From: Giardia intestinalis
Lineage: Eukaryota
Strand: one strand, 5' to 3'
NCBI GenBank assembly: GCA_000002435.2
Contig: CM018791.1
DNA: 64,000 nucleotides
The stretch's first letter is position 1. Each line of letters opens with the position of its first letter. The notes beneath the pieces were generated by a model, which saw nothing but the letters and a program-made list of their open reading frames with translations, was not told where the DNA came from and did no database searches. The position numbers were made by a program, and so were the translations under genes. Positions 2,212 through 30,913 of the stretch are shown here, piece by piece.

Positions 2212-3114
2212 CTAAGAACCCACAAACCTTGGATAGTGGGGAGACAATTTTGGAGACAACGATCGCGTGCTTTCCTTCCGCAACCCTGCCTCTTCTAGGT
2301 TGCTGACTATTGCCTCCAGACGATCCAGTTTTTGTGTGACCATCAAGAGGTCTTCTGTAAATCGATTCAGGCTTTTGCTTTGCATATCAATTACAGAGGA
2401 AACGGAGTCAGCAATGAGGCGTAAGTGGGCGACAGTCTCTTTGGCAAAGACCTCCTGTTGTCGTGTCATCTTGGTCAGTTGATCCTGCAGACCAGCCATC
2501 CCTGCGCTAAGTCTTTGAATAAGCTGTGCAGACACCACCGAGGAGGAGCTTAGAGACCCGCTCGGGACAGGGTCGTGACCATAATGCTCATCTCGCTTCA
2601 AATAACTTGCAGTCTTACGATTGTATGAGCTACGATTGCGTGATATCGGGTCAGCGCAGGGCGTAGCTGTGTAGCTTTGGAGCACAGAGAAGGGGTCGTC
2701 TTTTTGAAGTGAGTTCACAGACAGGTGAGCGTCAACGGGTCTAGCGAAACGCTGAGAGCTACACGGTACGCTCGCAGTACGCCTTGTCCCTGCGACGGTG
2801 ACTCCGCCTGTCAGACGAGTAGGGCGAATACTCGAGGGCCTTGTATCGAGCGATATCTTGTTCACTTTATCAAAGAGACGATTCTCTCCTAAGAATTTAT
2901 TCTGACGCAACGACGACACATCCTGAGCGTGAGGATGTTGAAAACACTCTCCGGCATATTGAAGAAGTGTCTCCCAGTGGAGCTTAGAATGTAAATGCCT
3001 CGAAGACGGACATAGCTCGATGAAGAGGGTCGCCTGTGGGATTTGCTCGTCACTACCATACCAGAGGGCCACCCCGAGCCAGATTCGGATTCCGTTTTTA
3101 TCCCAGAGCCTGCT
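2212..3114 (-). CDS. Open frame with no ATG for ~205 codons, directly downstream of the flippase and overlapping its 3' end; C-terminal part is coiled-coil
   Basis: The minus-strand frame is open from 3114 down to the stop at 2212. The track start at 3072 is GTG, and the first ATG is at 2499. The frame overlaps the flippase frame over 2889-3114, offset by -1. See the matching finding. Confidence 0.4.
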   Translation of the reverse strand, partial: SRLWDKNGIRIWLGVALWYGSDEQIPQATLFIELCPSSRHLHSKLHWETLLQYAGECFQHPHAQDVSSLRQNKFLGENRLFDKVNKISLDTRPSSIRPTRLTGGVTVAGTRRTASVPCSSQRFARPVDAHLSVNSLQKDDPFSVLQSYTATPCADPISRNRSSYNRKTASYLKRDEHYGHDPVPSGSLSSSSVVSAQLIQRLSAGMAGLQDQLTKMTRQQEVFAKETVAHLRLIADSVSSVIDMQSKSLNRFTEDLLMVTQKLDRLEAIVSNLEEAGLRKESTRSLSPKLSPHYPRFVGS

Positions 3115-6100
3115 CTATACATGGGCTTACTTCGATCTCGTAAGACGCTGCGAGATAGGCCAGGATGGTCTTGGTTGAAAGAAGGCTTGCCTATGACAGC
3201 CACATTCTGTTGCGACTCACGCGTGCAACACCGTGGAACTTTGCATGTAGCACAATAAACTGGCTTTCTCATTGATCTGAGAATACGGACCACGTTTGGT
3301 TTAGAGAACCGGCGAACGATGCGTTCACCGACAAAAAGCAGTACAGTCGATATTGCGTTTGTTACGCATAAGCGCCAAAACATATCTAGAGAAAACACTT
3401 CGCTACGAGTCAAGGAGCCCGGATAAATGGCAACAACCAAGAATAGCATCAAGTAGCTGAGAAGCAAGGCAACGAGGAGCATAAGGGAAAAGCGATGGGT
3501 AGTCACAAGGATCAGGCAGAGCTCGCTCCACAGCAGTATGGCGAAGCTGAAAAACGTAAATCTGCTGACAGAAATGGGAAACGACGAGAAGATGTATGCA
3601 AGAAGAAACACTACCACTGCTATAATAAAGCCACTAAATGTCCAGAGAAAAAATGTCTTAAGGTTCAGAATAGATCCACGCGACGTAATCCGATAGATTT
3701 CTGGGTATTTTAGTACTAGTTGGTAGTCCACATCTTCGTTAATATAATAGTTGAACGGTGGAAACATTGTGAATAGCGTCACGTATCCCAAGAGGAGTAC
3801 CCCGGTGTGAAGAACGAGAGACGTGAAAAAGTAAAGGCAGGTGAAACAAATCTGGAGCAAGCATAGCGCAACCCCGCGCTGGACGATAAACTGGCATATC
3901 TGTGCACTACCCACGTAGCTACACTTGCCATACCATAACAGAAGCTTCTTCAGTCCTCGGAATTCTGTCATCACATAGTCTGCTGCGTTGGCCGCCTGGT
4001 TGCCCTCCTTGCCCCGCAGTCCTATGCCGACAGAGCAAGTTTCGATCAGGGGAACATCATTTGCCCCATCGCCTATCCCTAGGGATTTGCTGCCTGTGTA
4101 TACCGAAATGAGGCCTGCAACAAGGGCCTTCTGCGTTGGTGTGCAGCGGCAGCAGAGGACCGTTTCTGCCTTGCTAGCAATATTTGCAAAAAGCTCGCGC
4201 GTCTCTGCATCTGGTCCAAGACTCCCCTTACCGCGTCTGGGGTGTCCTGTAAGGTAGATAAGTAACCAGCGGGTGAATCTCCTCCAGATCCTTACACACG
4301 AGTGCAAAGGAAGAAGGTTCCCAGTGATGGGATGGATTGCATGTGTGTAGAAGTAGTCCACGGGGTAGTTACCGAGGAGTTTCTCCAGCGCTGATCCGTC
4401 TATGACGATGGTAACCTCATGTGTGAAGCTAACCATTTGAGAGAGCTCTTTCAGAACGGAGACTATTTCAACAGGGGTGAGCTCCTCCGTCAAGAAGTAG
4501 ATATGCTCACTCAAGCGCCCATAGCACGTGCTTGCTAAAACAAGAGACCCTGGGCGTTTCTTTCTATTGAGCCGCTTTTCTCTTCTGGAGGTGACACTCA
4601 TAAAGGAATTGGGATCATCTCGAATGGCTCTGCGGAGGATTGCCATGGGTGTCTTATCCTCTTGGCCCACTTCTATCTCAGATCTTGTAGGAATAGATAC
4701 AGCATCTAGAGATGGAGTAGTTGGATACTTACATGCCTCAGGATGCAGCGACTGAGTAGTCAAAGGCGCGGTATTCTCGGATGCACGAAGCTTGCTGGTA
4801 TGCTTCTTGACTGCTGTATTTGGGAGCAACCCGCACGACTGGGCTATGCTCAAGCATGTCACAACCTTGTCTCCGGTCAACATCCAGAACTTAATTCCTG
4901 CTCTTTTCAGATCCTGGATCGTTGCCTTCACATTGAGCTGGAGCTGATCTTCGATTCCTGTTACACACAAGACCTCCACCCCTGTCAGCAGAGTCTCTTC
5001 GCATTTCACGAGTATGGAATCTCGGTTTGCCAGATCTGCAGACGCAGCAGTAATGGATGAATGAAAATTACTAAGGTCGTCATCATCGAGCATGCGGTAC
5101 GCATACACGAGGGTCCTCCGCCCCAGCCCTGCCAAAGCATCGACGGTGTTTCGAAGCCATGGACAGTACTTGGCAAACACCTCAATAGTTGTGTCTGCTC
5201 CCTTAACGAAAATAAACGTGGTTCCGGTAGCAATGTGGTGAGTGACGACAGACATGCGCTTGGTCTCTGATGTAAATGGAAAGGTATGAAGAAGCTCAAA
5301 CTCTTGAGATCCTGTACTAGCAGTGTAGCGTACAAGATTATGTGACTTTTCTTCCAGTATATAGCCCCGCGCATGCATGCTTCTTATTATTGCAACCTCG
5401 TCGGGAGATGAGCCAATATATCGATTAAGGATCAGATTTTCGTCAATCTCGCGGCGCGTAAAGAGCAATTCTGTTGGTGAATCGGAAAGTGAGAGCGTCT
5501 GCACAGGCTGAGATCGATCTTCGAGCCCGATGGCCTCAGAGATGCTCGCGTCGAGAAAGCTAGTTGGCTCCTGAGACGTTCTCTGTTCAGATGATTGACT
5601 AGTGCTTGCTGAGCAAGTTCTTGGCTGCCTCCTCCTTCTTGGCCTAAGGGCGGTATCTTGCTCTGGTGAATCCTGATCCTCGCGGAACAACTCGACGTTG
5701 TGACATGTCATGATTGCAAAGAGGACGATGCGCTGCAATTCGCTAGCGTAATTATCAAATACGTGGACAGACAAGCTGGGCTTTTTTTCTCCAACAACCT
5801 CATGGAGCCACATCTCGTTCCGTGTCAGAGTCCCTGTTTTGTCGCTGAAGACATGGCTAATGCGGCCCAGCTCTTCAGCTAGATCGGTTGATCTGACCTC
5901 AATCCCACTTATGGTGTCGTCCCGCTTAATACTTCCGGCCATGACGAGCTTGCCGAAGTCATAGGAAACCTGCATGGCCAATGGAATAATCGAGCTGAGG
6001 ATTATGATCCAGCGAACGAAGACGATAATACTTCTGGTTGTGGTGGCAAATGTAACCAGCGCTGACAGGAGCAGACAGAAAATGAACATGCCCTTGACAA

Positions 6101-18535: not shown

Positions 18536-19623
18536 GAAATGCCCGATTTGTTAATATTTACTATTACGCAAAATATACAGGAACAAAGATGGTCCCCTTG
18601 AAGAGGCCAGTGAAGAAGATAGTTCCCTCCCTGCCCACAGAGTCTACGTGACGCTACGGGCTCTTATTGCTGAAGTACTTGCTGACTAATTAAACTAAGC
18701 TCTTTGATAGAAAATAGATCATCGCACTACATAGGAGAATTGCATGCACAATAGCCTTACCGGCAGATAGGTAAAAAGCGAATGAAAAATTGTATTGTAC
18801 TATGAGCCAAACTTTATCTTATAAAGATTGAGGAATCCCAGGTAATATATAACGGTTTGAATGCCAGCAAGATTCGCGACCGCAGAGCACACTGCAATCT
18901 GGCGACTGGTTTGGCCATGCCGCTTCTTTATCCGTTAGAAACTCGGCTGGGAGCGACAAAGAGCACGTCGGGAGAACCCGGTGGGAGGGGACAGGCGGGG
19001 CTTTCTGCGCCACGGGGGGAACCACCGCAGGAGGACGTGCAGGCACGCAAGCCAGGCCACAGTAGACACGCGGGCGCCCCTGTAGACCGGGCCGGCAGCA
19101 GGCGTCCGTAGAATCCGCGCCAGAGCCAGCTGCTCAAAAAACTGGGCAGCCCCTGGTCGTGTGCAAGCCTTGCAGAGCACTGCGGCCCCCGACACTCGGC
19201 GACCCCTCTCAGAGCGGAAGACCCCGCGGGCCGCAGGCAGCAGCTCGTCGTCGGCGATGCCCCGAACGAGGGGGACGGCCCCAGCCTGCCCGCCTCCGCA
19301 GAGCTCCGGGTATCTGTAGACAAACCGGGGCTGCGCAGGGTGCGGCTCTCCCTGGCGGCCGAGGGCAGGGGTCCCCGGCAATACCAAAAAACTCCGATCA
19401 ATACATCAGCCCCGGCGCCGCCGTGTGCAAAGCAGTCTGTTCTGTGTGGCGGCCCAAGCCAGCTCGTACTGCGGCGATGGCCCGGGTGAGGGCGCCCTGC
19501 TCGCCCGACGGACCGGGGCAGGCAGGCAACAAACACCCGCTAAAGCTTTTATGCAAGGCCTGTACATATTTAATTTCACATTATTCGTTGGTCTGTTTTT
19601 AGTTTTATCGCTGCTTCTATCGG

Positions 19624-20433
19624 ATGGGCTCTGGGGCAATGACGGCGGAGACGCGCGCCTCCGTTCTGCTCGAGCTCGCGAAGCAGGTCGTCGCTGCCCG
19701 GCGGCTGGGAGAGACGGCCGAGAGCCTCGCGCGGCGGCCGCTGCTCCTCCACCGGCACGTGCTCCGGACGGCCATCGACTGGAAGAAGATCGCCCGCGCC
19801 CTGTCCGAGGACCGGAGCAGGATCTACCACTGGTACCGCGAGACGCACTCGCGGAGCATCCTCAACGTGAAGATGACCGGCGAGGACCGCAGGGCCATCA
19901 AGGCGATGATCATCGCCGGGGTCAGGGACCGGAGCGTCCTGGGCCCGGACTTCTACCGCAGGGTCCACGAGCGCTTCGGGGCGAAGTATCCGCGCCAGGA
20001 GCTGCGGATGACGTACAACAACGCGCTCCGCACCCAGGACGTCCGCGCCGCCCTGGAGGAGCACGGGGTGGTGCTGCCGCGCCGCACATACGGCCCGAGG
20101 GCGGCCAGGCAGGAGGAGGAGGCATCTCCTGTGGCGGCCACTCCCCCGCCCCCCTGCGTTTTTGGTTGCGCCGCGCCTCCGCTGGTGCCGCCCGTCGGGG
20201 GGCCGGTCTTTGTGGTCCCGGGCGCGGTCTCTGCGCTTCTGCCCCCGCACGCGCCGGGGTGCCTCGTCCTCGCCCTCCCACCCGGGGTCGTTCCTGGGCC
20301 CGGCGTCCTCCCGCTCCAGACGGGCCAGGGCCTCCTTGGGCCGCCCGTTGCCTTCGCGTGCGTGCCATGCTTCCCCCCTGCGGGCTACGGGGGCGTCCCT
20401 GGGTGCGCTGATGCGAGCCCCAGTAAGGGTTGA
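19624..20433 (+). CDS. Arm gene, copy 1: Myb/SANT-like helix-turn-helix protein with a proline-rich C-terminal tail (269 aa)
   Basis: The ATG is preceded by the only A/T-rich block in this part of the arm (19560-19623, catatttaatttcacattattcg…). Codon third positions are almost all G/C in this frame only. About 40% identity by eye over ~100 aa with the gene at 53268..54242 (IDWKKIARAL..YHWYRETH / MTGEDRRAI / RMTYNNALRTQDVRAAL). In both, exactly 50 residues precede the conserved W. Confidence 0.7.
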   Translation: MGSGAMTAETRASVLLELAKQVVAARRLGETAESLARRPLLLHRHVLRTAIDWKKIARALSEDRSRIYHWYRETHSRSILNVKMTGEDRRAIKAMIIAGVRDRSVLGPDFYRRVHERFGAKYPRQELRMTYNNALRTQDVRAALEEHGVVLPRRTYGPRAARQEEEASPVAATPPPPCVFGCAAPPLVPPVGGPVFVVPGAVSALLPPHAPGCLVLALPPGVVPGPGVLPLQTGQGLLGPPVAFACVPCFPPAGYGGVPGCADASPSKG

Positions 20434-20546
20434 GGACTGGAGAACCCGGCTTGCTTGACGATTGTCGAAGAGTGGCCGGCAGGAACAGCCGATGGTTGGA
20501 TCCCTGATCAGTGACGAGACAGTTATATCTAGAGCGTGTAGCATGC

Positions 20547-21262
20547 TCAACCACGGCACAGCGCAGGGCCCACCAGACACAGGCTACGACGGTCTGGATG
20601 TCGCGCAACCCGCATTCTGCGCATTGCTGAAGAGACCACACACAGCAGACGAAGGCAGGGCTCTCCCATGTGCCCAGACGACTCGAACACCGCGGTCTGG
20701 GCCAACGATCTACCAGACAGGCCCGTCCGGTAACAGGCGACTGAATGCTCTCTGGGCCGTGAGCTAAAGCTGATGTGCAGCTGGCCGGCCACGACATTCA
20801 CCCTGGCTGGCCCTCTGTCTTCACGCGCCGACACGCCAAGGAGCTGTAGGGAAGTCGTGTGCTGTCTTGGCAGGTATATTATTACCTCCATGTATGCACC
20901 CTGGATGCGGCCACCATAGCACAGCTGCATCTCTGATCGTCCTGTACACGCCTCCTGGCACGAGTAGGTGCGCAGGAGGGGGTGCACTGCCCACCGCCGA
21001 GAAATGGATGAGCTCCCCTGCTCAGGAGCCGACGACCGCCAGCCATGCCCAACGAGGTCCCCTGCAAGGAGGCCTGCTGAGCCAGCTCTTCCAGCGAGCC
21101 GTGTATCTGGAAGAGCTCCGCGTTGAATGGCTCCTTGATTAAGGAAGCCGGAGTCCAGCGCGATGTGACGCCTGTCCGTCTAAGGCTGAGACTTCGGTCT
21201 GGTGCTTGCTGCTGAGCGAGCATTAAATGAGGCTGGCCAAAGAAGCGGCTCAGGGCTTTCAT
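20547..21262 (-). pseudogene. Possible frameshifted gene in the arm (two same-strand overlapping ORFs)
   Basis: ORF 20882..21298 (ATG at 21262, MKALSRFFGQ…) and ORF 20547..20987 overlap on the same strand in different frames. Both have coding-like composition. No homology recognised. Mirrored exactly at 27823..28538. Confidence 0.25.
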
Positions 21263-23312
21263 AGCTCTGTGTCTTCTTGTTCTGTTCGACTGAAACACCT
21301 GATCTCAGTGCTGACTGTTGGGTCTCCTCCTGTGGACGTGGTCCGGAAGTCTCACAGAGGACCTGTTTTTTTGTAATTTCTTCTAAGACGAAGGTAAGTC
21401 GTTCTATAGGATTAGGACTACATCTGTAGAAGCACAGCCCCGGTTAAAGCAGTAACATACAATTCGCAGATGCGTAGAATGCTTGCAGGAGAAAGCAGTA
21501 AGGAAAGATATCTCGATCATGACATAGACGTGAGACAGCACCACAGGCTGCCCAAGCAACCGGTCTGGATACGAGGTGCGGCATGATTACCCTTATCTAT
21601 CCTTTGCCAGGTGAGGGAATTCGACATAGAGCCTAGTCACCCTAACGGTCAGAACCAAAGGCAAAAGCTAGACCTGTGGTGTGTTGGCAAGTGATGGACA
21701 CAAGGGCATCCCTGGATGGACTGTTGCATGAGAGGGCGAAGGCCCATAGAGATGGGTTGCTCTCAGCACCTGCAGTGGGCAGCTTGCTCCGCGGCCAACA
21801 AGTTGTTGGGTCAGAAACAAGCACGGACGATGCCTGTCAGATGGGTCCGAGCCAGTCACCCGATGCCCCCTACGGGCCTCGTCCAACCGACACTCTTGAT
21901 TCTTGTCGAATAGCTCAGACAGACTGGGGAGAGGAAGGACTACCAGTCACCAGAGCTTGCTGCAGTGGGAGAGCCGGGCTTGGCTCGTCCCCGTCTTCAC
22001 ACAAGAGCGGGGAAGTGGGTTTACTTGCGGGACCCTTGGGCCGCGGCTGCAGGGGGGCTCAGTACTAGAGCGCTAGAAATAGCTGGCTGTCGAAGTAAAT
22101 CGTCGCTTTCCGGGGATGACATCTTCCTCGACCAGGGCAGCAGAAGAGACCCTCAATGCATCTGCCGGTGCTGGGGTGCGTCCTACCCGTCAGCGGGGCT
22201 TCATGGCTCCACTGGAAAGCCCAATCGTCCGCTTCTTGCTGTGCTCAGAGGACAGAGAACTAGGCAGGCGTAGTCCCATCCGCCCACCGGAGGGCTATGA
22301 GCGCCCCCGTCGTCCCATTGAGCAGCACCAGGCGCAGAAGAGGTCTGCCGGAAATGCGCCAGATGCAGTCAACGCTTTTCTGGGTGTAGTGTTAACAGAA
22401 TCACACGCTACGACGCGTCCCAGACAGGCTCCACCTGGCAGCGGCGCCCCAGAGGCGGGCCCCGAGGGACAAAACATTTCTGGCCCTGCCCCTGCTCCAA
22501 TGCGAGCGGCCCGCGGACAGAGCCGAGGACGGGGGCCAGTGCTCGGCCTCCTGCTGGTGCGGTGGCGCCGGGAGACCACCGGACCATCGACTCGGCAGCG
22601 GCAACCGGTGGAACGCCCTGGGCTGCTGCTGTGCCCATGCGCCTGGAGCGCGCCGCAGCAGCCCGGGATGGGTCCGCAGACAGGCGTGCCGCCCCAGCCG
22701 TCCCGGGGGCCGGCTCCTCGTGGCGGGCGCTCCTGCTCCCTTTGACTTTTCAAATGGAGAACGCAGTTATGGATCCTAGTTCTGCTGCAGAAGGTGCCTT
22801 ATGAGACGCAGCACAGCCACACCAAGCGGTATCGGGGCTGAACACTCCTTGGGACGGGCTCCTGGCGCATCTGAGAGACGCTCGTTGCTGTGCACTGCCT
22901 CTCGGGCCTTGGATGCACGTTGTGCAGAGCTGCAGGAGTCGCCCTTGCAGTTGTCAGTGGGCCGTTGATGGAGCCATTGAAAGCTCTGGACCGCTACTGG
23001 GCAGTACTGTCCCAGTGCACGTGTGGCAGCTTTGGCTCGCACTGGATGGTCCGTACAGATTGCAACGGAGCCACGAGGTGCATTAGTATGACATACACAT
23101 TGAGACAGTTGCAGTTCTATTCGGTCCAATCCACCTCCTTCTGGCCCTGTGCCGAGATTGCAGATTGCAAGTAGTGTTCGCGATAGACCCGGTGAGTGTT
23201 GATTCCATCAGCGCCTGTGGTCAACGTGTGCCAGAAGGATCAATCAACTGCATCAATCGACGCGGATTGACTGATGTACCGCGAGTATGTTCCTACCAAT
23301 CTATCAATCGGG

Positions 23313-23319
23313 CAATGTT
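23313..23319 (+). promoter_or_regulatory. vsp initiator-like context (CAATGTT) around the start codon
   Basis: The sequence caATGtt fits the PyA-ATG-TT initiator context that I recall being reported for many vsp genes. The assignment is from memory of the vsp literature and is not independently testable here. Confidence 0.35.
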
Positions 23320-25534
23320 TGGCAGTTTTGTTCTCGCGGGGGTACTCGTCCAGATTGCATGGGCAGGAAAAGCAACAGAGCGCGCGCAAGAAGCTCAATG
23401 CGCAGATAACACTAATTGCGCAGCAGAAGCATGCAACGTTCTGATCGGTGGTAAATTGTATTGCTCTCGATGTAACACAGGATTTGTTCCTATCAATGGA
23501 CAATGTGCAGACAAAGAAGGTGCAACAGATAAGTGCAAAGATGGCTCCGGAGGCGATACAGCTGATCAGACCTGTGGACAGTGCGCCGAGCAGACTTTCA
23601 TGTACAAGGGCGGCTGTTACGAAGCAGCCCAGCAGCCCGGACAGACCATGTGTCAGGCGGCAGATGCTGGAGTATGCACACAAGCCGCGCAAGGATACTT
23701 CGTGCCGCCGGGCGCAGACGCCTCTCACCAATCGGTTATACCATGTGGAGACGAAGAGGAAATAACGGTTAAAAACGATAAAAAGTACAAGGGCGTGCTG
23801 CACTGCACTCGGTGTAACGCTCCCACAGAAGCAGCAGATGCTAACGCCAAGGCCGCCACATGCACTGCGTGCCAGGCAGATAGGTATCTGAAGACAGCCA
23901 AGGACCAAGCCACCTCCTGCGTGACAGAGCAAGAGTGCACCGGCACCGAAGGGTTCTTCGCGAAAAATGGCGGCACCAAAACCTGTGAGGCGTGCGCTGA
24001 AACATGCAAGACCTGTAAGACCGAGGCTGCGAAGTGCACCTCTTGCAAGGACGACAAGCCGTACCTGAAGAAGGATAATGGCAGCGACACTGGCACGTGC
24101 GTCACCGAAGCTGAGTGCAAGACTGGAAACACCCACTACCCCGACGACACTGAGCCGAAGACGTGCAAGACGTGCGCCGAGGGGACCTCCGACGGGTGTG
24201 CGACGTGCGAGAAGGGCGCCGATGGAGCAGTCGCCTGCAAGACGTGCGGAAACCAGAAGAAGGTCCAGCCAAACAAGAAGGGGTGCGTTGAGAACTGCCC
24301 CTCGAACTCCAACGATAAGAAGACCCCTGGCACCTGTGAGTGCGTTGAGGGCTACGTTCCCGAGGAGGCCGGCACCGGGTGCACGAAGAAGCCCGACCCC
24401 CCTGCGGCGCCGTGCAACACCCCCGGCTGCAAGACGTGCAGTGAGCCGAAGACAAGCAAGGAGGTGTGCACAGAGTGCGAAGACCCCAAGGCCCTCACGC
24501 CCACGGGCCAGTGCATCTACGGTTGTGAGCACCTGGAAGGCTACTACGAGGGCACCAGCGAGGGGGGCAAGAAGGCCTGCAAGAAGTGCGAGGTCGAGAA
24601 CTGCCTCCTGTGCAACGAAAACGGACAGTGCGAGACCTGCAAGGACGGATACTACAAGAAAGAAACCGCCTGTGCCAAGTGCGATACCTCGTGCAAGACG
24701 TGCGCGAACGGGGAGCCCAACGGGTGCACGAGCTGCGAGGCTAAGAAGGCCCTCAGCTACGAAGGAGAGGGCAACACGGGGACGTGCAAATCAGAATGCA
24801 AACCGGGTACTAACAACTGCGAGAAGTGCGAGCTGACAGTCGATGGCACGGCCTACTGCTCCAAGTGCAAGGACGCCAACCAGTTCCCGCAGAACGGAGT
24901 CTGCTCGGCGGCGGCCGGAAAGGCTATTACGTGCACTACCAAAGGGACTGGTGTCTGTGACAAATGCGCCAACGGGCTTCTTCGGATGAACGGAGGCTGC
25001 TATGAGACGACCAAGTTCCCTGGAAAGAGCGTCTGTGAGGAAGCAGCATCGGCTGGGGATACCTGCCAAGTAGAGGCTCCAGGCTATCATCTTAATAACA
25101 ATGACCTTGTGACTTGCTCGGCCGGATGTAAGACGTGCACTAGTAACACCGTGTGTACTGAATGCATGGATGGGTATGCAAAGACTGATAATAAGTGCAC
25201 AAAGTGTGCCACTGGCTGTGCTACTTGTGCAGGATCCGCCTCAAATTGCGACACTTGCAGCACTGGGTACTACAAGTATAAGAACGCCTGTGTGTCTTGC
25301 ACGGAAAGCAACAGTGATAAGACTATCACCGGCGTCGCCAACTGCGCCAACTGCGCTCCTCCACTCAACAATAAAGGGTCTGTCCTCTGCTACCTCGTGC
25401 AGAGTGGCGAGAACACTAACAAAAGTGGTCTCAGCGCAGGCGCCATCGCGGGCATCGCTGTTGCTGTCATCATTGTTGTCGGCGGCCTCGTCGGTTTCCT
25501 TTGCTGGTGGTTTATGTGCAGAGGCAAGGCGTAG
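23315..25534 (+). CDS. Variant-specific surface protein (VSP), 739 aa
   Basis: Signal peptide MFGSFVLAGVLVQIAWAG, about 28 CXXC motifs and two GGCY motifs (KGGCYEA, NGGCYET). C-terminal TM helix followed by the invariant cytoplasmic tail CRGKA (…GFLCWWFMCRGKA*). The track start at 23165 is a TTG; the signal peptide begins at ATG 23315. Confidence 0.95.
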   Translation: MFGSFVLAGVLVQIAWAGKATERAQEAQCADNTNCAAEACNVLIGGKLYCSRCNTGFVPINGQCADKEGATDKCKDGSGGDTADQTCGQCAEQTFMYKGGCYEAAQQPGQTMCQAADAGVCTQAAQGYFVPPGADASHQSVIPCGDEEEITVKNDKKYKGVLHCTRCNAPTEAADANAKAATCTACQADRYLKTAKDQATSCVTEQECTGTEGFFAKNGGTKTCEACAETCKTCKTEAAKCTSCKDDKPYLKKDNGSDTGTCVTEAECKTGNTHYPDDTEPKTCKTCAEGTSDGCATCEKGADGAVACKTCGNQKKVQPNKKGCVENCPSNSNDKKTPGTCECVEGYVPEEAGTGCTKKPDPPAAPCNTPGCKTCSEPKTSKEVCTECEDPKALTPTGQCIYGCEHLEGYYEGTSEGGKKACKKCEVENCLLCNENGQCETCKDGYYKKETACAKCDTSCKTCANGEPNGCTSCEAKKALSYEGEGNTGTCKSECKPGTNNCEKCELTVDGTAYCSKCKDANQFPQNGVCSAAAGKAITCTTKGTGVCDKCANGLLRMNGGCYETTKFPGKSVCEEAASAGDTCQVEAPGYHLNNNDLVTCSAGCKTCTSNTVCTECMDGYAKTDNKCTKCATGCATCAGSASNCDTCSTGYYKYKNACVSCTESNSDKTITGVANCANCAPPLNNKGSVLCYLVQSGENTNKSGLSAGAIAGIAVAVIIVVGGLVGFLCWWFMCRGKA

Positions 25535-25549
25535 ACTTAGATAGTAAAT
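25535..25549 (+). terminator. Extended vsp poly(A) signal ACTTAGATAGTAAAT
   Basis: It lies immediately after the TAG stop (25532-25534). It matches the vsp consensus ACTYAGRTAGTRAAY, which contains the general Giardia poly(A) signal AGTRAAY. Confidence 0.8.
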
Positions 25550-27822
25550 GCGTCGATTCGCCTTCTTAAGGCGTGGAACTCTCGTTACGTCCACACTGCA
25601 AATGTGCTTGACGATTTCTAACATCTGGATTTTGTATAGCAGTCTGGAGTCGTGTGTGTGACTTTACTTTTATTCCACACTTCCAATAGTTTGCCACTGG
25701 ACTTCGCCTGCAAATGCAGCCTAGGAGTGCATGAATAAATAAACTTACATGTCTTCTTGGTAGAGCAAAGCAGACCCCTACTTGAGGACTTGGACCCGCT
25801 ACTCTATGCTTGTATCTGACGTAGTCGCACTTAGCCAAGGTGCACACCCTACTATCACTCGATAGCTCACCCTCTCGTTGTCTTAAAGGAGCAGCTCTTA
25901 GACTGCTGCCCAGTTGACTTTACCAAGTACTTGCTTATTTAAGCGAACTGTGAACGAACTTTCTGAATACCAGGTGAACCCTTATATCTAAAGACTACGA
26001 CACGTTCCTCATGTTCCAGTTCTACTGTAGTGACCTGTGAGGATGGTTGTATCCAATCTCAGTCCTCCAGCATATAGAGTATACACTAGTAACCATTTGT
26101 ACTTCATAACCTGTCTTTGTCTTCGAACGTGACTGAGCGACCGGATTATTCGCATGGGTTTAGCCCATATCTAAATAAGATCGAGAAGAGGCCACAAGAA
26201 TACTTTCTATAGCAAAGCTGGAGCTGCTAGCTACATATGCAACAGTTAGCCCCGCACCAGCAATCGATGCAACGGGGATGTGTGCCCACCCGAGCAGTAC
26301 ACAGCTGGCTACCCGTAATTATGCTCTCCATTTGAAAAGTCAAAGGGAGCAGGAGCGCCCGCCACGAGGAGCCGGCCCCCGGGACGGCTGGGGCGGCACG
26401 CCTGTCTGCGGACCCATCCCGGGCTGCTGCGGCGCGCTCCAGGCGCATGGGCACAGCAGCAGCCCAGGGCGTTCCACCGGTTGCCGCTGCCGAGTCGATG
26501 GTCCGGTGGTCTCCCGGCGCCACCGCACCAGCAGGAGGCCGAGCACTGGCCCCCGTCCTCGGCTCTGTCCGCGGGCCGCTCGCATTGGAGCAGGGGCAGG
26601 GCCAGAAATGTTTTGTCCCTCGGGGCCCGCCTCTGGGGCGCCGCTGCCAGGTGGAGCCTGTCTGGGACGCGTCGTAGCGTGTGATTCTGTTAACACTACA
26701 CCCAGAAAAGCGTTGACTGCATCTGGCGCATTTCCGGCAGACCTCTTCTGCGCCTGGTGCTGCTCAATGGGACGACGGGGGCGCTCATAGCCCTCCGGTG
26801 GGCGGATGGGACTACGCCTGCCTAGTTCTCTGTCCTCTGAGCACAGCAAGAAGCGGACGATTGGGCTTTCCAGTGGAGCCATGAAGCCCCGCTGACGGGT
26901 AGGACGCACCCCAGCACCGGCAGATGCATTGAGGGTCTCTTCTGCTGCCCTGGTCGAGGAAGATGTCATCCCCGGAAAGCGACGATTTACTTCGACAGCC
27001 AGCTATTTCTAGCGCTCTAGTACTGAGCCCCCCTGCAGCCGCGGCCCAAGGGTCCCGCAAGTAAACCCACTTCCCCGCTCTTGTGTGAAGACGGGGACGA
27101 GCCAAGCCCGGCTCTCCCACTGCAGCAAGCTCTGGTGACTGGTAGTCCTTCCTCTCCCCAGTCTGTCTGAGCTATTCGACAAGAATCAAGAGTGTCGGTT
27201 GGACGAGGCCCGTAGGGGGCATCGGGTGACTGGCTCGGACCCATCTGACAGGCATCGTCCGTGCTTGTTTCTGACCCAACAACTTGTTGGCCGCGGAGCA
27301 AGCTGCCCACTGCAGGTGCTGAGAGCAACCCATCTCTATGGGCCTTCGCCCTCTCATGCAACAGTCCATCCAGGGATGCCCTTGTGTCCATCACTTGCCA
27401 ACACACCACAGATCTAGCTTTTGCCTTTGGTTCTGACCGTTAGGGTGACTAGGCTCTATGTCGAATTCCCTCACCTGGCAAAGGATAGATAAGGGTAATC
27501 ATGCCGCACCTCGTATCCAGACCGGTTGCTTGGGCAGCCTGTGGTGCTGTCTCACGTCTATGTCATGATCGAGATATCTTTCCTTACTGCTTTCTCCTGC
27601 AAGCATTCTACGCATCTGCGAATTGTATGTTACTGCTTTAACCGGGGCTGTGCTTCTACAGATGTAGTCCTAATCCTATAGAACGACTTACCTTCGTCTT
27701 AGAAGAAATTACAAAAAAACAGGTCCTCTGTGAGACTTCCGGACCACGTCCACAGGAGGAGACCCAACAGTCAGCACTGAGATCAGGTGTTTCAGTCGAA
27801 CAGAACAAGAAGACACAGAGCT

Positions 27823-28538
27823 ATGAAAGCCCTGAGCCGCTTCTTTGGCCAGCCTCATTTAATGCTCGCTCAGCAGCAAGCACCAGACCGAAGTCTCAGC
27901 CTTAGACGGACAGGCGTCACATCGCGCTGGACTCCGGCTTCCTTAATCAAGGAGCCATTCAACGCGGAGCTCTTCCAGATACACGGCTCGCTGGAAGAGC
28001 TGGCTCAGCAGGCCTCCTTGCAGGGGACCTCGTTGGGCATGGCTGGCGGTCGTCGGCTCCTGAGCAGGGGAGCTCATCCATTTCTCGGCGGTGGGCAGTG
28101 CACCCCCTCCTGCGCACCTACTCGTGCCAGGAGGCGTGTACAGGACGATCAGAGATGCAGCTGTGCTATGGTGGCCGCATCCAGGGTGCATACATGGAGG
28201 TAATAATATACCTGCCAAGACAGCACACGACTTCCCTACAGCTCCTTGGCGTGTCGGCGCGTGAAGACAGAGGGCCAGCCAGGGTGAATGTCGTGGCCGG
28301 CCAGCTGCACATCAGCTTTAGCTCACGGCCCAGAGAGCATTCAGTCGCCTGTTACCGGACGGGCCTGTCTGGTAGATCGTTGGCCCAGACCGCGGTGTTC
28401 GAGTCGTCTGGGCACATGGGAGAGCCCTGCCTTCGTCTGCTGTGTGTGGTCTCTTCAGCAATGCGCAGAATGCGGGTTGCGCGACATCCAGACCGTCGTA
28501 GCCTGTGTCTGGTGGGCCCTGCGCTGTGCCGTGGTTGA
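27823..28538 (+). pseudogene. Mirror copy of the possible frameshifted arm gene
   Basis: ORFs 27787..28203 and 28098..28538 are identical in translation to 20882..21298 and 20547..20987. Confidence 0.25.
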
Positions 28539-28651
28539 GCATGCTACACGCTCTAGATATAACTGTCTCGTCACTGATCAGGGATCCAACCATCGGCTGT
28601 TCCTGCCGGCCACTCTTCGACAATCGTCAAGCAAGCCGGGTTCTCCAGTCC

Positions 28652-29461
28652 TCAACCCTTACTGGGGCTCGCATCAGCGCACCCAGGGACGCCCCCGTAG
28701 CCCGCAGGGGGGAAGCATGGCACGCACGCGAAGGCAACGGGCGGCCCAAGGAGGCCCTGGCCCGTCTGGAGCGGGAGGACGCCGGGCCCAGGAACGACCC
28801 CGGGTGGGAGGGCGAGGACGAGGCACCCCGGCGCGTGCGGGGGCAGAAGCGCAGAGACCGCGCCCGGGACCACAAAGACCGGCCCCCCGACGGGCGGCAC
28901 CAGCGGAGGCGCGGCGCAACCAAAAACGCAGGGGGGCGGGGGAGTGGCCGCCACAGGAGATGCCTCCTCCTCCTGCCTGGCCGCCCTCGGGCCGTATGTG
29001 CGGCGCGGCAGCACCACCCCGTGCTCCTCCAGGGCGGCGCGGACGTCCTGGGTGCGGAGCGCGTTGTTGTACGTCATCCGCAGCTCCTGGCGCGGATACT
29101 TCGCCCCGAAGCGCTCGTGGACCCTGCGGTAGAAGTCCGGGCCCAGGACGCTCCGGTCCCTGACCCCGGCGATGATCATCGCCTTGATGGCCCTGCGGTC
29201 CTCGCCGGTCATCTTCACGTTGAGGATGCTCCGCGAGTGCGTCTCGCGGTACCAGTGGTAGATCCTGCTCCGGTCCTCGGACAGGGCGCGGGCGATCTTC
29301 TTCCAGTCGATGGCCGTCCGGAGCACGTGCCGGTGGAGGAGCAGCGGCCGCCGCGCGAGGCTCTCGGCCGTCTCTCCCAGCCGCCGGGCAGCGACGACCT
29401 GCTTCGCGAGCTCGAGCAGAACGGAGGCGCGCGTCTCCGCCGTCATTGCCCCAGAGCCCAT
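28652..29461 (-). CDS. Arm gene, copy 2: Myb/SANT-like protein with proline-rich tail (269 aa)
   Basis: The translation is identical to 19624..20433. The same A/T-rich leader is mirrored at 29462-29525. Confidence 0.7.
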   Translation of the reverse strand: MGSGAMTAETRASVLLELAKQVVAARRLGETAESLARRPLLLHRHVLRTAIDWKKIARALSEDRSRIYHWYRETHSRSILNVKMTGEDRRAIKAMIIAGVRDRSVLGPDFYRRVHERFGAKYPRQELRMTYNNALRTQDVRAALEEHGVVLPRRTYGPRAARQEEEASPVAATPPPPCVFGCAAPPLVPPVGGPVFVVPGAVSALLPPHAPGCLVLALPPGVVPGPGVLPLQTGQGLLGPPVAFACVPCFPPAGYGGVPGCADASPSKG

Positions 29462-30913
29462 CCGATAGAAGCAGCGATAAAACTAAAAACAGACCAACGA
29501 ATAATGTGAAATTAAATATGTACAGGCCTTGCATAAAAGCTTTAGCGGGTGTTTGTTGCCTGCCTGCCCCGGTCCGTCGGGCGAGCAGGGCGCCCTCACC
29601 CGGGCCATCGCCGCAGTACGAGCTGGCTTGGGCCGCCACACAGAACAGACTGCTTTGCACACGGCGGCGCCGGGGCTGATGTATTGATCGGAGTTTTTTG
29701 GTATTGCCGGGGACCCCTGCCCTCGGCCGCCAGGGAGAGCCGCACCCTGCGCAGCCCCGGTTTGTCTACAGATACCCGGAGCTCTGCGGAGGCGGGCAGG
29801 CTGGGGCCGTCCCCCTCGTTCGGGGCATCGCCGACGACGAGCTGCTGCCTGCGGCCCGCGGGGTCTTCCGCTCTGAGAGGGGTCGCCGAGTGTCGGGGGC
29901 CGCAGTGCTCTGCAAGGCTTGCACACGACCAGGGGCTGCCCAGTTTTTTGAGCAGCTGGCTCTGGCGCGGATTCTACGGACGCCTGCTGCCGGCCCGGTC
30001 TACAGGGGCGCCCGCGTGTCTACTGTGGCCTGGCTTGCGTGCCTGCACGTCCTCCTGCGGTGGTTCCCCCCGTGGCGCAGAAAGCCCCGCCTGTCCCCTC
30101 CCACCGGGTTCTCCCGACGTGCTCTTTGTCGCTCCCAGCCGAGTTTCTAACGGATAAAGAAGCGGCATGGCCAAACCAGTCGCCAGATTGCAGTGTGCTC
30201 TGCAGCCGGGGATCTTGCTGGCATCTCACGCGACCGGGCTCTGGGTGTGCCTGCTCAACAGTAGCTACCTCATCCACAGAGTGCTGATGCAGATATTATG
30301 CGCTACGTATCAGTGACCACAGGGGCACCGATAGACAGGGTCTCAGCCTCAGTGCACAACGAAGGTTATCAAGCATAGCGAGGCTTACATACTGAGCATG
30401 GGTCCGTGCCCCGCGTGGTCTTCTTAAGAACTAGTGCATGAGTGTTTGTGAGACGATGCTATCCGTATGAGGCGGGCTATCCGTCGTACGCGAAGTGCAG
30501 TACGGCAGAAGTGGGTGATGCAGGAACCAGAGGGGGTGCTTCAGCACATCAGTCGTCGGCCCCTCTGCCTTCTGTCACGCCTGATGGACTCTCCTCTACT
30601 ATCGCAACTCAGTCGTGGTTGTCTGAGGAGAGGACTAGGTATTCAGTAGACAATGGAATCGCGTGGCCTGGACGCGATTTCGTGATGGCCAACACGGGTT
30701 ATCAGGCTGGCTGTGGTCTGGATATGTGGTACAGCTTCCTTCACTCAAGCAGGGGTTAACACCTGCACTAATACAGATCTACAATAAGACATACACCATG
30801 CCCAGTACAGTTGAAAGATAAAACAGAAAGATATTATATTAAACGATAGTTATATTTGCCGTCAATTGTTATTAATAGAGCTAACACCCCTGGTCAAAAA
30901 AACGTTCGCTGTG

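Follow-up and report, generated by a model that had tools for sequence, protein, structure and literature searches.

An old inverted duplication around the single-copy VSP9B10A gene of Giardia intestinalis, probably maintained by gene conversion and with a loop whose orientation differs between lineages

Published tables of inverted gene pairs in Giardia intestinalis list VSP pairs only (Adam et al. 2010; Xu et al. 2020). For isolate WB, Adam et al. (2010) reported 14 identical inverted vsp pairs of the vsp1267 type, with distances of 2190-3847 bp between the open reading frames (ORFs), and Xu et al. (2020) reported 19 duplicated VSP pairs, most of them 2648-3846 bp apart from ORF to ORF and one 12440 bp apart. 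Some of these pairs enclose a gene, either a reverse-transcriptase remnant or a NEK kinase (Adam et al. 2010; Xu et al. 2020). In this report we describe a locus on chromosome 3 of G. intestinalis WB (clone C6; chromosome length 1,973,847 bp), in which a non-VSP gene is duplicated in two long inverted arms and the antigen gene VSP9B10A lies between them as a single copy. The locus was analysed within a 64-kb stretch of contig CM018791.1, hereafter termed the window.

Like the vsp pairs, the WB palindrome consists of near-identical inverted copies on one chromosome, which are of similar scale and diverge abruptly at their ends. The two architectures differ in what is duplicated. In the published pairs the vsp genes form the arms, whereas here the arms carry the gene 60974/d60974, which encodes a 269-aa protein without a VSP domain, and the VSP gene is the single-copy loop. 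The unique DNA between the copies amounts to 3540 nt from arm to arm; the published spacing of 2-4 kb is measured from ORF to ORF, and by that measure the two 269-aa ORFs are 8.2 kb apart. The VSP9B10A locus is absent from the published pair tables (Adam et al. 2010; Xu et al. 2020). Literature searches retrieved no paper that describes the VSP9B10A palindrome, though both gene copies are annotated (60974 and d60974), and Pollo et al. (2020), whose data bear on the locus, do not discuss it. An earlier note on this DNA had set the architecture apart from known vsp pairs, and against both surveys the role-reversed arrangement really does differ.

Further relatives are found outside Giardia. Primate sex-chromosome palindromes likewise possess arms that are more than 99.9% identical within a genome, a unique spacer that can be inverted by crossover and arm boundaries that shift; likewise, an orthologous palindrome occurs in a diverged lineage, and the arms group by genome. 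The WB palindrome differs from these in being 10-1000 times smaller, in belonging to a tetraploid, largely asexual protist, and in carrying an arm gene that is not of the testis-type ampliconic kind; moreover, a signal of GC-biased conversion is inseparable here from the high GC content of the whole gene family. Plastid inverted repeats and the yeast 2-micron plasmid share with the locus long identical inverted repeats around a single-copy segment, both segment orientations and copy correction. The Giardia locus, in contrast, is chromosomal and lacks a dedicated recombinase such as FLP. On the evidence set out below it is quite probable, in our view, that the locus is an old inverted segmental duplication around single-copy VSP9B10A, which is maintained by gene conversion and whose loop inverts by arm-to-arm recombination.

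An inverted-repeat search of the window returned one inverted pair with arms of 3912 nt and a gap of 3540 nt, and the two arms are the sole repeat of at least 60 nt in the window. The pairing was then checked base by base under x + y = 49085. The palindrome comprises the following parts:

18861-22772, + strand: left arm, on the RING side, with a near-perfect core at 18882-22760
22773-26312: single-copy spacer (loop), 3540 nt
26313-30224, - strand: right arm, on the RRP4 side, reverse complement of the left arm
18861-18881, mirrored at 30204-30224: outer edge zone of the arms, with four mismatches in 21 nt
21673 (partner 27412): sole arm-to-arm difference inside the core, C versus T, from the base-by-base pairing
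20434-22772: apparently noncoding arm DNA of about 2.3 kb, of which 21865-22772 is also a palindrome arm in isolate P15

The core spans 3879 nt with its single mismatch. The note's own pairing of 18861-22760 with 26325-30224 stands, including its inner limit: the repeat finder had extended the arm to 22772, yet only 7 of the 12 positions in 22761-22772 match, and thus 22760 is the better boundary. Beyond 22760 and before 18861 the match falls to chance level, at both ends within about 20 nt. The palindrome contains no N bases, and each ORF of one arm reappears, identical, on the opposite strand of the other arm, as had been claimed. A repeat of this length cannot have arisen by chance. The symmetry axis (24542.5) falls inside the spacer VSP gene. 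The GC content of the arms is 63%, compared to 49% for the rest of the window.

The four outer mismatches cluster at 18874, 18876, 18879 and 18881, and judged by the pairing, the outer 21-nt zone looks like an unconverted margin. At these four positions the bases of the WB left arm agree with a paralogue beside a kinesin gene in isolate DH and not with the WB right arm, a pattern that hints at possible ectopic conversion between dispersed family members.

The genes in and around the palindrome occur in the following order:

KAE8302584: coiled-coil protein
KAE8302585, 17573-18535: RING finger protein
KAE8302586, 19624-20433, + strand: GL50803_00d60974, 269-aa hypothetical protein, left-arm copy, exact match to KAE8302586.1/KAE8302588.1
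KAE8302587, 23315-25534, + strand: VSP9B10A, ORF GL50803_101074, "VSP with INR", 739 aa, exact match to KAE8302587.1 / AAG16629.1
25543-25549, + strand: polyadenylation-signal motif AGTAAAT, starting 9 nt past the VSP stop codon
KAE8302588, 28652-29461, - strand: GL50803_0060974, 269 aa, identical right-arm copy
KAE8302589, 30914-31702: RRP4
KAE8302590: GL50803_33023

The prefix "d" in the WB annotation marks a duplicated gene (Xu et al. 2020), and AAG16629.1 equals ORF 101074, VSP88 and VSP9B10A according to a proteomics paper (PMC7332775). The two 269-aa genes converge on the VSP gene. The loop gene is a complete VSP: it matches the Pfam VSP family with E=2.6e-153, begins with a signal-peptide-like N-terminus and ends in CRGKA. 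The consensus of the Giardia polyadenylation signal is AGTRAAY, and both the VSP start region and a poly(A) motif of this type lie within the loop. The description of one complete VSP gene between arms flanked by unique RING and RRP4 genes is thereby confirmed.

The decisive comparison is with P15, an isolate of assemblage E. Its contig ACVC01000215.1 (L016 in our numbering) contains an inverted repeat of its own beside the orthologous coiled-coil and RING genes. The P15 arms (2778-3950 and 7279-8451 of L016) measure 1173 nt and are 97% identical, and the spacer of 3328 nt holds the orthologous VSP (744 aa, 61.5% amino acid identity over the full length). In WB coordinates the P15 arms cover 21865-22772 and extend past this stretch by about 150 nt towards the loop. 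Over 764 arm columns shared by both genomes, the WB left and right arms are 100% identical and the P15 arms 97.1%, whereas WB and P15 agree at 71.6-71.9%. The arms therefore group by genome and not by side, which is the signature of arm-to-arm gene conversion and which a very recent duplication leaves unexplained. On these alignments, the palindrome is older than the divergence of assemblages A and E, and its arms evolve in concert, being near-identical within a genome and diverging between lineages. Concerted arms, an orthologous position in P15 and both spacer orientations between lineages are the marks of a conversion-maintained palindrome, and all of them are found here.

On its RING-proximal side, P15 retains single-copy homology to WB 20696-21865 without the part that bears the 269-aa gene. 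A separate observation on the same contig is that the RING side in P15 lacks a 1.95-kb segment carrying that gene (L016 9400-10010 against window 18749-20695). Past the far arm of P15 another VSP (L016 992-2344) stands in place of RRP4, and synteny thus breaks at the palindrome. In assemblage B, contig L018 of GS_B (1-2137) carries two pieces of VSP sequence immediately upstream of the RING gene and coded on its strand, namely a VSP tail (the 3' end) at a distance of 1.46 kb and a second, C-terminal fragment. Arm homology was not detectable on the assemblage B contig L018. The GS_B layout fits the P15-type orientation as the ancestral one, the VSP there being a candidate ortholog only. The comparison of isolates and assemblages that the earlier note had called for thus places the palindrome in assemblages A and E.

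Within assemblage A, DH (assemblage AII) and two ENA assemblies share with WB the left junction, at which the RING flank meets the arm (18861), and ERZ27317378 shares the right junction between arm and RRP4 flank (30224). The left and right arms of ERZ27317378 are only 92.5% alike over their outer 213 nt, whereas the WB arms differ there at the four edge mismatches alone. Between WB and ERZ28528424, the orthologous arms are 92.9% identical, compared to 98.4% for the adjoining flank. Ten short-read assemblies end at or just inside the outer arm edge, and the right-flank contig of a sample similar to ERZ28528424 ends 328 nt into the arm. Contig breaks at 18890 were considered as proof of the palindrome and discounted, as a paralogue has the same first 30 nt of the arm. 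Two ENA samples with flanks 99.9% identical present a further peculiarity: the left arm of one equals the left-arm type of the other for about 100 nt and then continues as its right-arm type (L001 9224-9700 against L006 1-213 and L014 1-328). The apparent mosaic in this arm of L001 reflects a conversion tract or else a chimeric path of the assembler.

Spacer orientation relative to the unique flanks varies as well. The RING gene and the VSP gene lie on opposite strands in WB and on the same strand in P15. Alignment of the inner junctions further indicates that the RING-proximal arm runs into the 3' side of the VSP gene in P15 and in L001, compared to the 5' side in WB. The longest identical run shared by the P15 arms is 200 nt, and hence reads of more than 200 nt could have assembled the P15 contig across its arms unambiguously. 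L001 (ERZ28528424 NODE_591, an assemblage-A-like contig assembled with SPAdes) has the order left flank, arm, VSP 3' side. Going by these contigs, the spacer occurs in both orientations between lineages, in WB versus P15 and in WB versus L001. Inversion of the loop, which in the earlier note the arms were said to allow, thus took place between lineages.

Whether the loop also inverts within WB can be approached through the data of Pollo et al. (2020), who aligned uncorrected WB nanopore reads to a hybrid assembly of that isolate and used Sniffles to detect structural variants. The Table S3 entries that concern this locus place ORF 101074 at utg53_pilon 77798-80014 and include two inversions over it, at 73920-84146 (15 reads) and 74984-83080 (24 reads). 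With the VSP gene as anchor these coordinates convert to the window at an offset of 54483; offsets and midpoints are our own arithmetic. Measured inward from the outer arm edges, the converted breakpoints lie at 576 and 561 nt, and at 1640 and 1627 nt, in the two arms, and the midpoints of the calls (79033 and 79032) fall within 8 nt of the palindrome axis at 79025.5. A read from the flipped isomer aligns wholly to the reverse strand along arm, spacer and arm, and mirrored breakpoints are therefore expected inside identical arms. On the basis of these calls, the coexistence of both isomers in WB appears slightly more probable than its contrary. Active flip-flop within the WB culture is accordingly indicated, not proven.

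Several considerations weigh against an old, conversion-maintained and inverting palindrome. Separate inverted duplications at the same site in assemblages A and E are, strictly speaking, still conceivable, given that the inner boundaries of the WB and P15 arms differ by about 150 nt. The flipped spacer of L001 carries less weight, since short reads are unable to phase arms of 3.9 kb and the contig also bears the mosaic arm; its path may be chimeric. As to the WB calls, aligners can misbehave at inverted repeats, and the genotype field reads 1/1:0:N in all of the Table S3 calls considered here, and consequently yields neither an allele fraction nor an isomer ratio. The high GC content of the arms was also considered as specific evidence of GC-biased conversion between them and rejected as such: single-copy paralogues in DH, P15 and GS are as GC-rich as the arms, and the high GC content thus belongs to the family and not to the palindrome.

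A single process would account for both features of the proposed palindrome. Intrachromosomal homologous recombination between the arms, if resolved without crossover, would amount to gene conversion and homogenise the arms; resolved with crossover, the same recombination would invert the spacer. Conversion tracts that extend or retract would let the arm boundaries drift, from 1.17 kb in P15 to 3.9 kb in WB. The unconverted outer margin and the lineage-specific arm lengths fit conversion tracts of such variable extent.

For the VSP gene itself, inversion would probably be of little consequence. The same 3.9 kb borders the loop in both orientations, and the start region and poly(A) signal of the VSP gene belong to the loop; what changes on inversion is thus only how the gene is oriented towards sequences at a distance of more than 3.9 kb. 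This agrees with the earlier claim that only the relation to the unique flanks would change. Most likely, inversion is neutral for VSP expression and represents a by-product of recombination rather than a switch, and most likely the palindrome has no direct role in antigenic switching. The opposite reading, in which the palindrome functions in antigen control, would make it a source of double-stranded RNA through transcriptional read-through or let the loop's orientation to the unique flanks bias which chromosome copies express VSP9B10A, a VSP that is frequently expressed. The convergent 269-aa genes lack a canonical poly(A) signal for 1.6 kb past their stop codons, and read-through would thus yield sense and antisense VSP RNA in either orientation. 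If this reading were true, the conservation of the palindrome in assemblages A and E would reflect selection. We regard it as unlikely.

The arms themselves might suggest another origin. Each arm comprises an upstream stretch of about 760 nt, the gene of 810 nt that encodes the 269-aa protein and about 2.3 kb without sign of coding. The protein belongs to a Giardia-only, multi-copy family. In WB at least seven gene copies with at least 90% amino acid identity lie on at least four different chromosomes, and remoter members are about 44% identical. The earlier note had spoken of duplicated flanks; flanks are indeed duplicated, yet they are not anonymous, as they carry a member of this dispersed family. 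According to the family alignment and an AlphaFold2 (AF2) model, the protein comprises a helical domain of some 150 residues, which is strongly conserved, and after it a disordered tail rich in proline; residues 1-150 of the model are helical, with a predicted local distance difference test (pLDDT) score of about 90. An almost invariant motif block of the family reads RIYHWYRETH..., YPRQELRMTYNN. The protein has no match in Pfam and none in a PDB profile search. A Foldseek comparison of the predicted structure gave only a weak resemblance to three-helix DNA-binding domains of the Myb/SANT or homeodomain-like type (E 0.4 or worse). The GC content at third codon positions is 0.89 for the gene and 0.96 in the conserved N-terminal domain, which represents an extreme codon bias.

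The copy beside the kinesin gene is informative about how the arms were assembled. In DH this copy shares 94% identity with the outer 1.5 kb of the arm, and the homology begins exactly at the arm edge. The copy is syntenic in DH and P15. In the right arm, homology to the kinesin-locus paralogue of DH and P15 runs about 46 nt past the outer edge, to 30270 (30225-30270 against L015 9191-9237 and L002 9216-9236); in the left arm it ends exactly at the arm edge. This asymmetry in the aligned sequences suggests that the left arm was copied from the right arm, and the gene-bearing outer part may have been copied in the same direction, right to left, as the arms extended.

A dispersed family with such a sharp homology edge invites the view that a mobile element inserted twice and gave rise to the arms, which would then make up a cassette akin to a composite transposon that could move or invert the VSP gene. 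Besides the copies on several chromosomes and the match to the kinesin-locus copy from the very arm edge inward, the composition of the arms looks foreign (63-72% GC). However, neither the 269-aa gene nor any arm ORF encodes a transposase, reverse-transcriptase or integrase domain, and neither terminal repeats nor a target-site duplication were seen at 18861 and 30224; the arms thus display none of the hallmarks of a transposon. Conserved synteny of the kinesin-locus copy in DH and P15 implies that this copy is stable, the left arm, unlike the right arm and the paralogue, is truncated, and the inner 0.9 kb of the arms lies outside the high-identity dispersed unit, yet forms a conserved palindrome arm in P15. 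A mobile-element origin is accordingly a shade less likely still than a role in antigen control.

The earlier note had left the choice between a very recent inverted duplication and continuing conversion. Arms that are identical because they are young, duplicated in the WB lineage without any conversion, would suit a single difference in 3879 nt and a genome of which 6.9% is duplicated (Xu et al. 2020). Against such youth speak the outer junctions, which are the same in DH and in ENA isolates with flanks 1.5-2% diverged from WB, the divergence of 7.5% between the outer arm parts of ERZ27317378, and the presence of the palindrome in P15. The clustering of four mismatches at the extreme edge of a perfect interior also looks more like an unconverted margin. 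Conversion is thus strongly favoured, and a very recent duplication is clearly improbable.

Bacterial invertons such as Hin, Fim and the Bacteroides promoters resemble the locus in that a determinant of a surface antigen resides on an invertible segment between inverted repeats. One might accordingly envisage a programmed inversion switch that toggles VSP9B10A in the manner of bacterial phase variation: a single antigen gene lies in the invertible segment, and its orientation differs between lineages and perhaps within WB. Invertons, however, have inverted repeats that measure tens of bp, and they employ a site-specific recombinase together with a promoter or coding junction that inversion connects or disconnects; none of these features is found here by sequence analysis. 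The arms are identical over 3.9 kb, so whichever way the loop points, the VSP gene is bordered by one and the same sequence to its left and right; its start region and poly(A) signal travel with the loop, and no ORF in arm or spacer encodes a recombinase domain. Giardia VSP switching is reported, and generally held, to proceed without DNA rearrangement. A programmed switch at this locus is very improbable.

Least credible of all is that the palindrome or its loop orientation was created by the long-read assembler, as might be suspected because the 2007 assembly apparently broke here (the old accessions of VSP, RRP4 and 33023 are consecutive and that of the coiled-coil gene is unrelated), because the second 269-aa copy was added only in 2020, as "d60974", and because of the ten short-read contig ends: a real repeat also yields contig breaks at its edge, both outer junctions and both kinds of inner junction occur in independent assemblies of other isolates, the orthologous P15 palindrome was assembled through arms that differ at least every 200 nt, an independent WB nanopore hybrid assembly has ORF 115614 at the same offset from the VSP gene as the window, the inversion calls put mirrored breakpoints in both arms, and PacBio fold-backs come without a unique spacer of 3.5 kb.

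VSP9B10A is among the best-studied Giardia antigens, and it resides in a segment that was inverted in evolution and perhaps still inverts in culture. The locus offers a small, tractable example of concerted palindrome evolution in a tetraploid, mostly asexual protist, and it provides a readout of intrachromosomal homologous recombination in Giardia, with respect to both conversion and crossover. In practical terms, read mapping, the calling of structural variants and the design of knock-ins at this site are all affected by the two isomers and the identical arms, which also go some way to account for the breaks of short-read assemblies at the locus. Long-read studies report many "inversions" in Giardia, and some of these may represent similar flip-flop at inverted repeats.

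Minor observations concern the inner part of the arms and the wider distribution of the gene family. In a tblastx comparison of the noncoding arm part with paralogous loci, similarity was equal in all frames, with no frame-specific conservation, and the stop-to-stop ORFs of the arm gave no Pfam match. A known non-coding RNA, such as an rRNA, was considered as the reason for the GC-rich arms and dismissed, as no Rfam match was obtained, either at the gathering threshold over the whole window or in E-value mode over 18800-26400. In assemblage B, a VSP gene of GS_B is followed, 1.7 kb downstream, by another member of the 269-aa family with 63% identity (L003 404-4497), and the link between this family and VSP genes may be recurrent. 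Finally, two inner-arm blocks at about 22072-22100 and 22370-22435, mirrored in the right arm, are nearly unchanged between assemblages A and E, compared to an arm-wide identity of 72%. Past the 269-aa gene, the first poly(A) motif of canonical form, AGTAAAT at 22094, lies inside one of these conserved blocks, which may mark a long 3' untranslated region or an unannotated transcript.

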